DNA from: a virus
Taxonomy: Duplodnaviria > Heunggongvirae > Uroviricota > Caudoviricetes
Length of the DNA: 8,582 nucleotides
Direction: 5' to 3' (one strand)
Virus record (IMG/VR): IMGVR_UViG_2671180609_000027
Each line of letters opens with the position of its first letter. Position 1 is the stretch's first letter. This document shows positions 3,363-7,164 of this stretch, in pieces. The notes beneath the pieces are model-generated. The model saw nothing but the letters and a program-made list of their open reading frames with translations, ran no database searches and was not told where the DNA came from. Made by a program: the position numbers and the translations under genes.

Positions 3363-3460
3363 NNNNNNNNNNNNNNNNNNNNNNNNNNNNNNNNNNNNNN
3401 NNNNNNNNNNNNNNNNNNNNNNNNNNNNNNNNNNNNNNNNNNNNNNNNNNNNNNNNNNNN
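3363..3460. other. Assembly gap: run of 98 N
   Basis: Literal n characters in the sequence; true length and content unknown. Confidence 0.99.
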
Positions 3461-4210: not shown

Positions 4211-4636
4211 TCAATGCACGACAACAGCATTACCAGGCTGACCCCCACTGTTAGTCAGGGTGCCCCAGGCGATCGCCGCTGCGACAAAATCATCCACATC
4301 TTTCACCAGCCGATCCCTCCGTTCGACGATCTCACGGTAATATTCAGAGCTGTGACTGCGCATACGGGCCACCAGCAGAGGCGGCATTGCCTTTTCGATC
4401 GCCGGTAACAGAGCCTGCATTTTTTCAACAGCATCAGGGGTGTCTTTATCCAGCCAACGGAAAATTTTCTGGGTATTACGAGCCAGGGCTTCCGGATGGC
4501 TGTCGTCGTACAGTTCCGGGAACGTCATCCCCAGTTCGAAATAAGTCCGGGCTATTTCAGCTGCAGGAACTTTCTCACCATCAGGATATGCCCAGGCATT
4601 CATCGCCATGCGGATGTGCTCATGTTTGATTTTCAT
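4211..4636 (-). CDS. ydaT: YdaT-like protein (cII-like regulator of Rac-type prophages; reported toxic when overexpressed), 141 aa
   Basis: Begins MKIKHEHI, which I recall as the YdaT N-terminus; located 13 nt downstream of ydaS as in Rac; ends ...VVVH; ATG at 4636. Confidence 0.7.
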   Translation of the reverse strand: MKIKHEHIRMAMNAWAYPDGEKVPAAEIARTYFELGMTFPELYDDSHPEALARNTQKIFRWLDKDTPDAVEKMQALLPAIEKAMPPLLVARMRSHSSEYYREIVERRDRLVKDVDDFVAAAIAWGTLTNSGGQPGNAVVVH

Positions 4637-4943
4637 GAATCATTTGCCTCTTGATGCTTCGGGTATGATCGTTTTCGTCATTTGGTTGCTTCATCGACAT
4701 ATTCTGCGAATAACATGACGAGCGTCGTAAGTATGTCCAATCAACATCAGGACGAAGTTCTTCACACAGGACACCACCTTTTGTTGCTCGTTCAATCGCA
4801 GGACATCTCTCAGCAGGCAACTGACGTACACCTTTGATCCATTGATTTACGCTTGGAGGAGATACACCTAAAAGCCTAGCCATTGCTGATTGCCCACCGA
4901 CAACAGCACAAGCTCGTTTGAATGAATAGTTATCTTTTTTCAT
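4620..4943 (-). CDS. ydaS: YdaS-like Cro-type HTH regulator, about 107 aa from the ATG at 4943
   Basis: Segment KRACAVVGGQSAMARLLGVSPPSVNQWIKGVRQLPAERCPAIERAT closely matches what I recall of E. coli Rac YdaS. ATG at 4943 with SD GGAG about 8 nt upstream; the track ORF extends 7 codons further, to 4964. Divergent from the repressor gene. Confidence 0.85.
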   Translation of the reverse strand: MKKDNYSFKRACAVVGGQSAMARLLGVSPPSVNQWIKGVRQLPAERCPAIERATKGGVLCEELRPDVDWTYLRRSSCYSQNMSMKQPNDENDHTRSIKRQMIHENQT

Positions 4944-4964
4944 CGAATGAACTCCAAAAAACAC

Positions 4965-5067
4965 ACAATAATATTAGGCTTAGCCTAATGCAATTGTCAA
5001 TAGGCTATGCCTAACGCTTCGAGAGTAGGTATTGCCTAATGCGATGCGCATAGGAGACTATTAAGCA
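4965..5067. promoter_or_regulatory. Divergent immunity-region control region: leftward promoter for ydaS (-35 TTGACA at 5000-4995, 18-bp spacer, -10 TAATAT at 4976-4971) overlapped by operator palindromes TAGGC-TTA-GCCTA (4975-4987) and TAGGC-TAT-GCCTA (5001-5013); a degenerate site CCTA-N12-TAGG containing palindrome ATGCGCAT lies at 5035-5054 next to the racR RBS AGGAGA (5052-5057)
   Basis: Hexamers and palindromes read directly from the sequence; operators overlap the -10 and abut the -35 of the ydaS promoter as expected for repressor control. The rightward racR promoter could not be placed confidently. Confidence 0.6.
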
Positions 5068-5544
5068 ATGCTTAGTGGTAAAGACTTAGGCCGAGCGATA
5101 GAGCAGGCCATTAACAAAAAAATTGCATCAGGAGCCGTCAAATCAAAGGCGGAAATCGCACGTCATTTCAAAGTCCAACCACCATCAATCCATGACTGGA
5201 TTAAGAAAGGTTCGATAAGTAAAGACAAACTTCCAGAACTATGGCGTTTCTTTTCTGATGTGGTTGGTCCAGAGCATTGGGGGCTTAACGAATACCCCAT
5301 ACCAACCCCATCCACTTCAGATACAAAAAGTGAACTTTTAGACATAAACAGCCTTTATCAAGCCGCCTCTGATGAAAAAAGAGCAATTGTGGCTTTCCTC
5401 TTATCTGGAAATGCTACGGAGCCTAGTTGGGTTGATCATGACGTTCGTGCCTACATTGCCGCAATGGAAATGAAGGTAGCTAACTATCTGAAAAATCAAG
5501 AATCAAAACGGAAAAGCCAGAACATCACCAAGACAGGAACTTAA
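5068..5544 (+). CDS. racR: RacR-like prophage repressor (CI functional analogue), 158 aa
   Basis: Length and position (divergent from ydaS) match Rac racR. HTH segment SKAEIARHFKVQPPSIHDWIKKGSIS resembles the YdaS HTH. RBS AGGAGA 10 nt upstream of ATG 5068. Confidence 0.75.
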   Translation: MLSGKDLGRAIEQAINKKIASGAVKSKAEIARHFKVQPPSIHDWIKKGSISKDKLPELWRFFSDVVGPEHWGLNEYPIPTPSTSDTKSELLDINSLYQAASDEKRAIVAFLLSGNATEPSWVDHDVRAYIAAMEMKVANYLKNQESKRKSQNITKTGT

Positions 5545-5580: not shown

Positions 5581-5639
5581 TAGTTAACTCCTACTACCTC
5601 TCCCACAAACCATCACCTATTAGGTCGCACCCAAATCAT

Positions 5640-5681
5640 TAGGCGTAGCCTATTGACAAGCAATTAGGCATTTCCTATAGT
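5640..5681 (+). promoter_or_regulatory. Second operator-promoter region: palindrome TAGGC-GTA-GCCTA (5640-5652) abutting -35 TTGACA (5653-5658), 17-bp spacer containing a degenerate TAGGC half-site (5665-5669), -10 TATAGT (5676-5681); rightward, toward ydaF-xis-int
   Basis: Near-consensus sigma70 hexamers with optimal spacing, read directly; same 13-bp operator consensus as at 4975-5013. Confidence 0.55.
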
Positions 5682-5859
5682 TTTCCCATACCAACCCATC
5701 CCGTCCCACACAATACAGGGCAATACCTAGAGTTACCCGGCAGTGGTCAGGGATTAAGTAGCCAGCCCGAGGCGTAAGAACATGACGGCAGGGTTCAACT
5801 TTAACTATGCAGCAGGTTTTTGTTCCGCTACCCCGGCGTTAAGGGGATATGAGGTCAGC

Positions 5860-6012
5860 ATGGATACTCTTGATCTTGGCAACAACGAATCTCTGGTGTG
5901 CGGCGTGTTTCCCAACCAGGACGGCACGTTCACCGCGATGACGTATACCAAAAGCAAAACGTTTAAAACCGAATCTGGCGCGCGTCGCTGGTTAGCAAGA
6001 AACTCTGACTAA
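5860..6012 (+). CDS. ydaF: YdaF-like small protein (DUF1391 family), 50 aa
   Basis: Sequence MDTLDLGNNESLVCGVFPNQDGTFTAMTYTKSKTFKTESGARRWLARNSD resembles the Rac/Qin small DUF1391 proteins as I recall them. SD GAGG 5 nt upstream of ATG 5860; an alternative start at 5782 would add 26 residues. Confidence 0.55.
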   Translation: MDTLDLGNNESLVCGVFPNQDGTFTAMTYTKSKTFKTESGARRWLARNSD

Positions 6013-6126: not shown

Positions 6127-6618
6127 CTACAGATTGCCGTTCAGTTTTCTGGCCAACTCTTCAATAGATGGAGGTGATACGTAATCCGGATTTTTATTCA
6201 TAAGAAACTGATTTTCACAGTACAGGCACCTGCTTTTATGAAAAAATTCATATTCTCTAACCGGGAATGGCTGAAGTATCGATACTATCTTTTGTCCAAA
6301 ACATTTTGGACAAAGATGCATGATTATGCTGCCGCCGTTCACGGTTACCTCCTTCGAGTACACAAAAGTTCCCGACTCAAGTTGGCTAAGGATATAACCT
6401 TCCGTCTGAGCCTCAAAGTTTTCAAATTCTGCAATTTTAGCTTTGAGAGAAGCATTTATTTCTTGATAAGTGCCCACCAGCTCAACGAGAGACACGCATT
6501 CGCGCTGAATAGATGCAAGCTTTGAGTTCAGTTCACCAATAGCCGCATTTACTTCAGCTTGAGTTTTTGCCTCGTTCATTAGTTTTGCAATCTGGGCGGT
6601 TTCACGAATAGCCGTCAT
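6127..6618 (-). CDS. Hypothetical protein (about 163 aa) with an N-terminal predicted coiled coil and a C-terminal CxxC-x21-CxxC zinc-ribbon-like motif; AT-rich accessory gene (moron) on the strand opposite to its neighbours
   Basis: ORF 6127-6795; upstream of ATG 6618 the translation is low-complexity, so ATG 6618 (or GTG 6642 with AAGAG upstream) is the likely start. Heptad-like N-terminus (IAKLMNEAKTQAEVNAAIGELNSKLASIQRE...), then HLCPKCFGQK...SRCLYCENQF. Visibly lower GC than flanks (by eye, not computed). No transmembrane segment. Confidence 0.6.
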   Translation of the reverse strand: MTAIRETAQIAKLMNEAKTQAEVNAAIGELNSKLASIQRECVSLVELVGTYQEINASLKAKIAEFENFEAQTEGYILSQLESGTFVYSKEVTVNGGSIIMHLCPKCFGQKIVSILQPFPVREYEFFHKSRCLYCENQFLMNKNPDYVSPPSIEELARKLNGNL

Positions 6619-6656
6619 TGCTGCCGTTAATTCAGCGATCACATTCAATACTCTTA

Positions 6657-6726: not shown

Positions 6727-7164
6727 GTGGTAAAAAGCAGGCACACAACACGAAAGCACACGGCGAGGGACACCATTAAATGGTGGCTTAAGCAATCACG
6801 CGAAGCGCAATCTGCCATTATGACCGATGAAATCCCGTTAGATGATGCACTGTTACAATTGCGGGAATTTATCGACGAAAACTCCGGTGAATTTTTTGTT
6901 CAGGTCTGGGGAAATGGAGCCAACTTCGACAACACGATTTTGCGCCGTTCATACGAACGGCAGGGGATCCCCTGCCCGTGGCGTTACTACAACGATCGCG
7001 ATGTACGCACAATCGTTGAGCTGGGGAAAGCCATAGACTTCGATGCCAGAACGGCTATTCCATTCGAAGGTGAGCGCCATAATGCACTTGATGACGCCCG
7101 TTACCAGGCAAAATACGTTTCAGTTATCTGGCAAAAACTGATCCCGAGTCAGGCTGATTTTTAA
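6727..7164 (+). pseudogene. 5'-truncated DEDDh-type (DnaQ-like) 3'-5' exonuclease remnant; conserved part starts near 6820
   Basis: Contains Exo II-like VWGNGANFDNTIL and Exo III-like ERHNALDDARYQAKY (H-x4-D) motifs but no Exo I (D-x-E) motif. The frame opens only at 6682 after a TAA at 6679-6681 and has no ATG before 6820 (track start is GTG 6727); the expected ~60 N-terminal residues are absent. Confidence 0.6.

Follow-up and report, generated by a model that had tools for sequence, protein, structure and literature searches.

A RacR-type operator set in an Escherichia coli O157 lambdoid prophage and a candidate OL/PL equivalent beyond racR

The region between the divergent racR-like and ydaS-like genes of an Escherichia coli O157 prophage is very probably the right-hand operator/promoter of a lambdoid immunity switch, in which an N-terminal helix–turn–helix (HTH) domain would enable RacR dimers to recognize the 13-bp palindrome TAGGC-n3-GCCTA. 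The stretch of DNA that we analysed, 8582 nucleotides long and hereafter called the window, contains six such sites in two clusters. Four lie between racR and ydaS; the other two lie beyond the racR stop codon, at a strong match to a promoter, and may be the counterpart of the lambda OL/PL region. That RacR operators lie over the ydaS promoter is already known from experiments on the Rac prophage of K-12 published between 2017 and 2025, and this part of the finding, taken as it stands, matters little: the O157 prophage carries sites that have been established in K-12. A sequence-only reading of the same DNA had proposed two palindromes over the ydaS promoter as the sequence that defines the RacR operator. 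Both sites are real, and their reading as RacR operators is upheld by the K-12 experiments and by the comparative tests described here; as a definition of the operator the proposal is a rediscovery, and a motif search of the whole window showed that two sites give an incomplete picture.

Results

Identity of the prophage

The window matches one E. coli O157 chromosome at 100% identity, in which the gene at 5068–5544 is annotated racR (RefSeq) and in which xis and int end the prophage and adjoin potC. To judge by its gene content, this is a lambdoid prophage of E. coli O157 distinct from Rac itself, because its early-left arm is only ~2 kb, far shorter than that of K-12 Rac, and its replication genes are of the O/P type rather than ydaU/ydaV. 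Between the two prophages the racR–ydaS module is ~87% identical and the racR–ydaS intergenic region 94% identical. They share gene order, the −35 and −10 hexamers of the ydaS promoter with their 18-nt spacer, the four site distances and the half-sites; they differ in the n3 spacers, in the length of YdaS (98 aa in K-12 Rac as compared with 107 aa in the O157 prophage) and in parts of the racR promoter considered below. The YdaS_toxin and YdaT_toxin Pfam matches fall on the two genes divergent from the racR-like gene, and the Pfam and PHROGs assignments agree with the assumption of the sequence-only reading that the leftward promoter reads into ydaS–ydaT. The putative YdaT box of the window, TTGATTTTCATGAATCAT, occupies the position equivalent to that of the published K-12 YdaT-box (PMC11879457); a match at such looseness is not significant alone, two or more matches being present in 39 of 200 shuffles.

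The block formed by the intergenic region, racR and the downstream operator pair occurs in 1086 of 5426 complete E. coli genomes, its parts always together, no counted match covering less than 80% of it. The allele of the window is found in ~460 of the 5426 genomes and the K-12-type allele in ~600. A second racR copy was sought in the O157 genome and a single copy only was found, so the presence of homoimmune prophages within one O157 cell is not supported.

Table 1. Positions of genes, candidate operators and promoter elements in the window.
Feature	Position	Strand	Remarks
ydaT-like CII-type regulator gene, 141 aa	4211–4636	−	Pfam YdaT_toxin; phrog_163 CII-like activator, 3e-47
ydaS-like Cro-type HTH gene, 107 aa	4620–4943	−	Pfam YdaS_toxin 3.8e-30, P22_Cro 1e-08; phrog_35
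YdaT box TTGATTTTCATGAATCAT	4626–4643		Spans ydaT start codon; one mismatch to TTGATT-n6-AATCAA
ydaS–ydaT promoter	4971–5000	−	−35 TTGACA 5000..4995, 18-nt spacer, −10 TAATAT 4976..4971; 10/12 match
Operator O1 TAGGCTTAGCCTA, perfect	4975–4987		2-bp overlap with ydaS −10; fills promoter spacer
Operator O2 TAGGCTATGCCTA, perfect	5001–5013		Abuts −35 of ydaS promoter, beginning one base past −35
Operator O3 TAGGTATTGCCTA, one mismatch	5026–5038		Right half holds TTGCCT 5032–5037, likely racR −35
PracR3 −10 equivalent	5054–5059	+	GAGACT here, GAGAAT in K-12 (alignment)
Operator O4 TAAGCAATGCTTA, two mismatches	5062–5074		Spans racR ATG 5068–5070 and leaderless start
racR-like repressor gene, 158 aa	5068–5544	+	RefSeq RacR; ~92% identity to RacR-named proteins
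Downstream operator TAGGCGTAGCCTA, perfect, OL2-like	5640–5652		Abuts −35 of rightward promoter
PL-like promoter TTGACA-17-TATAGT	5653–5681	+	−35 5653–5658, −10 5676–5681; 11/12 match
Downstream operator TAGGCATTTCCTA, one mismatch, OL1-like	5665–5677		2-bp (TA) overlap with PL-like −10
ydaF-like gene, DUF1391	5860–6012	+	Pfam/PHROGs

Palindromes over the ydaS promoter and the racR start

Two perfect 13-bp palindromes, O1 and O2, lie where the sequence-only reading had placed them, and the leftward TTGACA-18-TAATAT promoter whose −10 and −35 they were said to overlap and abut was found independently by a consensus scan, in which it was the sole promoter-like site between 4800 and 5200 (Table 1). 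From this promoter, transcription of ydaS would start near 4964. A chance origin of the palindromes is excluded by shuffling: TAGGC-n3-GCCTA without mismatch is found three times in the window, as compared with 0.00 expected (200 shuffles), and with at most one mismatch five times, as compared with 0.13 expected, a total of five being reached by none of the 200 shuffles.

Site quality in the intergenic region is graded, with perfect sites over PydaS and imperfect ones over the racR promoter and start. The four sites are at −93, −67, −42 and −6 from the racR ATG, positions that are identical in K-12, and the centres of O1, O2 and O3 are 26 and 25 bp apart. TTGCCT within O3 is likely to be the racR −35, since it lies 16–18 nt upstream of the published PracR3 −10 position; at this place (−41/−42) TAGG(A/T/G)ATTGCCTA is kept in all informative relatives. 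O4, although two bases away from the motif, is still a perfect palindrome, with one G-to-A change in each half. K-12 has the identical site, published as ‘O3’, with the ATG within its n3 spacer (PMC9638921), and a site at −6 is conserved among relatives. The C.Csp231I off-target box CTAAGCATTGCTTAA at 5061–5075 overlaps O4, and the published site of lethal cross-talk with the C.Csp231I regulator is present intact in the O157 allele.

No sigma-70 promoter for racR passed the consensus scan, which is consistent with the weakness of the published racR promoters. The −10 of PracR3 reads GAGACT here and GAGAAT in K-12, and that of PracR2 (AGTAAG in K-12) is not conserved, the window having TCGAGA; the strength of racR transcription may therefore differ from that in K-12.

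Relation to the published K-12 Rac switch

Three palindromic TTAGGC/GCCTAA repeats were described in the 123-bp intergenic region of K-12; RacR formed three complexes with this DNA in EMSA and a single complex with a 49-bp fragment carrying one repeat, was enriched there in ChIP-qPCR, and repression by it was assayed with an IGR-gfp reporter fusion (Krishnamurthi 2017, PMC5700373). Primer extension gave a single ydaS start with −35 TTGACA and −10 TAATAT, and mutation of the −10 abolished activity. In DNase I footprints, RacR protected the ydaS promoter (O1) at the lowest concentration, and protection reached the racR-proximal region as the concentration was raised. The same work gave the operator consensus as (T/A)TAGGC-n3-GCCTA(T/A), placed one operator across the racR ATG, found the main racR promoter (PracR3) to be leaderless, and reported that the repeats are conserved across several Enterobacteriaceae (Mruk laboratory, NAR 2022, PMC9638921). 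The intergenic region has since been described with ‘four operators’ (Mruk laboratory, NAR 2025, PMC11879457).

The O157 prophage has the features that characterize a RacR-type immunity region. Repeats of the published consensus lie between racR and ydaS, one of them across the ATG; the repressor is orthologous to RacR (P76062) and its gene is divergent from ydaS–ydaT; and the ydaS promoter, overlapped by O1, has hexamers identical to those of the validated K-12 PydaS. Together with the K-12 data, the identical half-sites and the near-invariant DNA-binding domain suggest that RacR would bind the O157 sites and repress ydaS, and near-identity further suggests that the order of site filling seen in K-12, with the accompanying repression of ydaS, would transfer to the O157 prophage.

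Conservation of the sites across loci

The operators were compared in 12 loci with RacR relatives of 58–92% identity, together with three distinct loci in which the repressor carries an S24 peptidase domain (S24-type loci) and one duplicate. The RacR-relative loci come from E. coli, E. ruysiae, Mixta, Proteus, Klebsiella and Achromobacter, and from MAGs labelled Nitrosomonas, Aeromonas and Pseudomonadota. A search of 63 kb (14 loci) gave 58 motif matches with at most one mismatch, as compared with ~1.9 expected; 57 of them were inside the two clusters, and in locus L009 the remaining match preceded the downstream pair by 74 bp. Both clusters are conserved out to Proteus, Mixta and Pectobacterium, and the intergenic cluster also to beta-proteobacteria.

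Within the intergenic cluster the distances to the repressor ATG are fixed, and they hold out to Achromobacter and Nitrosomonas: distant relatives have sites at −66, −41 and −6, to which the E. coli types add a further unit at −93. Wherever the layout of a relative is recognizable, the position that aligns with O2 (~−66) has a site that is perfect or nearly so. In the three-site loci the leftward promoter has its TTGAC −35 directly next to the −41 site and its TAATAT −10 in overlap with the −66 site, which is the E. coli cassette minus one unit. The 25/26-bp spacing follows from this arrangement, since a 13-bp operator, a 6-bp −35 and 6 or 7 bp to the next operator (17- and 18-nt promoter spacers) make up one unit.

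Comparison of the O157 and K-12 alleles gave the same picture at the level of single bases. They differ at none of the 52 consensus half-site positions and at 64 of the 309 remaining non-coding ones (one-sided Fisher p = 1.6e-5); within sites, the only changes are in five spacer bases and at two positions where the site was degenerate beforehand. In O1 the half-sites are identical and all three spacer bases differ.

RacR and its DNA-binding domain

The racR product is ~92% identical to RacR-named database proteins and to RacR of K-12-type loci. RacR gave no sequence match in Pfam (including HTH_3 and Peptidase_S24), in PHROGs or in the PDB, and the combination of an N-terminal HTH_3 domain with a C-terminal self-cleaving S24 peptidase is not found in it. 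An AlphaFold2 model (40-sequence alignment; mean pLDDT 81) is all-helical, with a five-helix N-domain at residues ~4–71, a disordered linker at 80–90 and a helical C-domain ending in a long helix. Nearly all of the top Foldseek matches of this model were lambda-repressor-like or XRE HTH domains, among them the lambda cI N-terminal domain, Xylella Cro, HipB and the restriction–modification controllers C.BclI and C.Esp1396I; TM scores, normalized to the target, were 0.5–0.66 over 60–78 columns, and none of the matches was individually significant (best E = 0.075). The model thus gives a weak but consistent indication that the N-domain has the lambda-repressor-like HTH fold.

The strongest argument that this domain reads the sites is a natural domain swap. 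Residues 1–74 are near-invariant across three unrelated C-terminal halves, namely the helical half of RacR, a Nitrosomonas type and an S24 peptidase, and all loci with the RacR-type N-domain keep the −66/−41/−6 layout, whichever C-terminus is attached. Thus the repressors P0101 (Pectobacterium aroidearum), P0102 and P0114 are 70–86% identical to RacR over its first ~74 residues and continue into a LexA/CI-type S24 peptidase (PF00717). Their loci, like those of the closer RacR-type relatives, also retain the downstream operator/promoter cassette, and differ in having two extra genes before it. Because some relatives with the same N-domain carry S24, we regard RacR as a C-domain-swapped offshoot.

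Two other readings of the intergenic palindromes have to be weighed against their use by RacR. In one, they are primarily operators of the Cro-like YdaS, or are read equally by both proteins, and the layout reflects YdaS autoregulation. A YdaS-family gene is indeed the divergent partner in 11 of the 13 site-bearing loci, YdaS has been reported to autorepress (PMC9638921), and in the related CP-933P switch the footprints of YdaS and of the repressor overlap (PMC8630535). Yet RacR alone footprints these sequences in K-12, and YdaS is reported not to repress racR although O3 and O4 cover the racR promoter (PMC9638921). Moreover, the HTH region of YdaS varies (45–85% identity), and the half-site does not, as neither does the RacR N-domain; this favours RacR as the primary reader, with shared use by YdaS possible. 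Shared use fits our explanation and exclusive use by YdaS does not, and we consider the YdaS reading quite improbable. In the other, the palindrome at 4973–4989 would act as a minus-strand RNA hairpin or intrinsic terminator rather than a protein site, as suggested by the consensus scan, which marks ATTAGGCTAAGCCTAAT followed by ATTATTGTGT as terminator-like on that strand. The stem is, however, the operator palindrome itself and lies upstream of the ydaS start, hence outside the ydaS mRNA, and the T-tract that follows it is poor. Between alleles it is the ‘loop’ that varies, with invariant half-sites and no compensatory changes in the stem, and a terminator role would not explain five more copies of the palindrome at promoter-defined positions. 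We rejected this reading, to which we attach next to no probability, and retain the palindromes as RacR operators.

A second operator cluster at a PL-like promoter

The downstream pair lies past the racR stop codon (5544), ~640–690 bp from the intergenic cluster, and accompanies the best promoter match in the neighbourhood, which reads into the ydaF-like gene, an exonuclease remnant, xis and int (Table 1). In terms of sequence, therefore, the prophage appears to have a second operator set at an early-left promoter beyond the repressor gene, as lambda has at OL. A third downstream candidate at 5621–5633 (TAGGTCGCACCCA) was not counted, having three mismatches and an off-register spacing. An Rfam scan of the whole window at E values up to 1 gave no match, the conserved C-rich leader at 5687–5800 having been considered as a nut-/put-like RNA. 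In the S24-type loci the pair is 765–1010 bp past the repressor stop, after the two extra genes, which are co-directional. This order recalls lambda, in which rexAB lie between cI and OL.

In K-12, depletion of RacR raises expression of ydaF, ydaG, kilR, ydaE and racC 40- to 70-fold and of xisR and intR ~100-fold, and Rac excises; the papers reporting this induction give no cis element and note that xis and int are far from racR (PMC6765115, PMC11014345). Rho-dependent silencing of kilR is documented (PMC4150792, PMC12482147), and silencing of this gene has been attributed only to racR-promoter read-through and a Rho terminator (PMC4150792). We found no mention of the downstream pair in the accessible Rac, RacR and kilR literature, and the literature yielded nothing usable on RacR binding across the genome or on an sbcA-mapped early-left promoter.

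The pair could instead be a relic or a recombination joint, with the early-left genes governed only by racR read-through and Rho termination. This would agree with the kilR literature, which explains silencing by a Rho terminator and by transcription that originates at the racR promoter, without a separate promoter (PMC4150792), and the sequence 5687–5800 is common to more than 2000 E. coli genomes without racR, which implies a module boundary nearby. However, in six lineages in which the flanks have diverged completely the half-sites and the TTGAC −35 are invariant and a −10 that starts with the terminal TA of the operator is retained; TAGGCGTAGCCTA is preserved between diverged flanks in K-12, E. 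ruysiae, Mixta, Proteus, a Pseudomonadota MAG and the S24-type loci. The pair is kept in the S24-type loci despite the two genes that separate it from the repressor. The geometry exactly mirrors that of the proven ydaS promoter, one operator ending at the −35 and the other sharing 2 bp with the −10, as O1 does, and invariance all the way from E. coli to Proteus and Pectobacterium is not what a relic would show. A relic is, in our judgement, unlikely.

We favour reading the downstream cassette as a so far undescribed equivalent of OL/PL, through which RacR would directly repress the early-left operon and which could loop with the right operator. We combine this with the proposal that the DNA-binding domain of RacR and its operators form a portable module that is also used by S24 repressors, RacR being a version of an SOS-inducible repressor that would have lost inducibility; for the two taken jointly we regard the case as evenly balanced. 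In Rac, the early-left operon under the predicted PL would most likely comprise ydaG/F, kilR, recET, xis and int; in the O157 prophage it would comprise ydaF, exo, xis and int. The rise of early-left transcripts after RacR depletion could also be indirect, via YdaS or YdaT. A racR-IGR-ydaS deletion is viable in K-12 (PMC5700373) and kilR is toxic, and so the transcription predicted from PL must terminate before kilR.

Discussion

The arrangement of sites suggests how the switch may work. O1 and O2 sandwich the strong leftward promoter, so that bound RacR would exclude RNA polymerase and silence the Cro-like ydaS, the CII-like ydaT and the replication genes that follow. O3, over the racR −35, and O4, at the start and ATG, would fill only at higher RacR levels, leading to negative autoregulation. 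RacR bound at the downstream cassette would most likely repress the early-left operon, with ydaF, the exonuclease remnant, xis and int. Operators are 25–26 bp apart within the clusters, and the clusters are ~640–690 bp apart; cooperative binding by RacR oligomers, or looping between the operator clusters, may contribute.

In its general plan the region resembles lambda OR and OL. The repressor and cro-type genes are divergent, with several spaced palindromic operators over both promoters; site strength is highest over the lytic promoter and lower over the leaderless promoter of the repressor, a gradation in line with the order of site filling published for RacR; a leftward-type promoter past the repressor gene carries a second set of operators; and the N-domain of RacR probably has the same HTH fold. 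The operators of lambda are spaced 23–24 bp centre to centre and those of RacR 25–26 bp. In contrast to these likenesses, lambda has 17-bp operators, three plus three, and RacR 13-bp operators, four plus two, without sequence similarity between them. Unlike lambda CI, RacR has an all-helical C-domain without S24 peptidase, and RecA-stimulated self-cleavage is therefore not expected of it. Nor is the switch a strict copy of the CI/Cro pair, since YdaS, unlike lambda Cro, is reported not to repress racR (PMC9638921).

The PaaR2/YdaS switch of CP-933P (E. coli O157:H7) offers a further comparison. It comes from the same host lineage, has ydaS–ydaT as its lytic-side genes and has four equally spaced intergenic palindromes; in addition, OL operators and a PL promoter past the repressor operon have been identified and tested there. 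It differs in its unrelated repressor, PaaR2, in its operators, which are likewise unrelated and are 18-bp palindromes with the half-site consensus GTTTAGTAA, and in a toxin–antitoxin pair that is co-transcribed with the repressor gene (PMC8630535).

The O157 prophage, which lies at potC in O157 and related strains, shares its immunity specificity with Rac, a different prophage. Since different prophages have the same RacR operator specificity, RacR-type prophages should be homoimmune across backgrounds. The downstream pair offers a simple and direct candidate mechanism for control by RacR of kilR, recET and xis–int, and hence of excision. If this is correct, it would show directly why kilR, xisR and intR rise 40- to 100-fold, so far without explanation, and why Rac excises when RacR is depleted, and it would revise the view that kilR is silenced solely by Rho acting on racR read-through. 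The association of one operator set and a 74-residue DNA-binding domain with three different C-domains is a clean natural case of modular repressor evolution.

An operator-promoter cassette downstream of racR

Downstream of racR, a near-consensus rightward promoter (TTGACA-17-TATAGT) is flanked by two RacR-type operators. This cassette (window 5640-5681) is kept across E. coli, Proteus, Mixta and Pectobacterium, and we found no description of the operator pair in the accessible literature. It is likely, as judged from the sequence, to be the equivalent of the lambda-type early-left operator and promoter (OL/PL) in control of ydaF, exo, xis and int.

The leader that follows matches, at 89–93% identity, unannotated stretches of >2000 racR-negative E. 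coli genomes; in sequence terms it is a module common to different immunity regions and positioned downstream of them. It is possibly a Rho-loading or nut/put-like element; Rfam returned no match for it.

Features of the immunity region and early-left arm (window coordinates)
Feature	Position	Strand	Remarks
YdaT box	4626-4643		TTGATTTTCATGAATCAT; one mismatch to TTGATT-n6-AATCAA; spans ydaT start codon
C.Csp231I off-target box	5061-5075	-	CTAAGCATTGCTTAA; published form CTAAG-n5-CTTAA
Second RacR-type operator pair and promoter	5640-5681	+	sites on both sides of TTGACA-17-TATAGT
Leader	5687-5800		C-rich, G-poor; after PL-like promoter, reaching first ATG (5782)
Opposite-strand ORF	6127-6642	-	annotated length, 171 aa; phrog_1244 (unknown function)
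3'-5' exonuclease gene	6763-7164		Rv2179c-like domain; RefSeq: pseudogene without N-terminus

Genes of the early-left arm

The ORF that begins at 5782 (5782-6012; RefSeq annotates only 5860-6012) joins a ydaG-like start to a ydaF-like DUF1391 reading frame, whereas ydaG and ydaF are separate in K-12; from this comparison the body of ydaG appears to have been deleted here. The opposite-strand ORF lies between the PL-like promoter and exo-xis-int, in the place that sieB occupies in Rac. A moron or an exclusion gene is one possible identity for this ORF, and it would collide with early-left transcription. The exonuclease pseudogene and the very short early-left arm together suggest a decayed, cryptic prophage. 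Within the replication genes (DnaT-like/O-type gene), 98 bases are masked as N (3363-3460), and ORF calls spanning this run are artefactual.

RacR and its regulation

The 74-residue N-terminal domain of RacR is also found joined to an S24 (LexA/CI-type) peptidase domain, in the relatives P0101 (Pectobacterium aroidearum), P0102 and P0114, and the S24-type loci (L015, L016 and L018) have the same operator layout as RacR loci. Given this shared domain and layout, RacR looks like a C-domain-swapped relative of an SOS-type repressor, and is probably non-cleavable. The YdaT box covers the first codon of ydaT, a position also published for K-12 Rac (PMC11879457) and for CP-933P, a cryptic prophage of E. 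coli O157:H7; with this placement, a CII-like feedback element seems to be kept in this prophage.

Two −10 elements of racR differ from those published for K-12: that of PracR2 is TCGAGA rather than AGTAAG (window 5017-5025), and that of PracR3 is GAGACT rather than GAGAAT (5054-5059). With both altered, racR expression may be set at a different level in this allele. The box for C.Csp231I, a restriction-modification regulator, overlaps the ATG-spanning RacR operator. This off-target box has been published, and cross-talk between the C protein and RacR has been described as lethal in K-12. Because the box is intact here, the same lethal cross-talk should be expected in O157 strains that carry this prophage.
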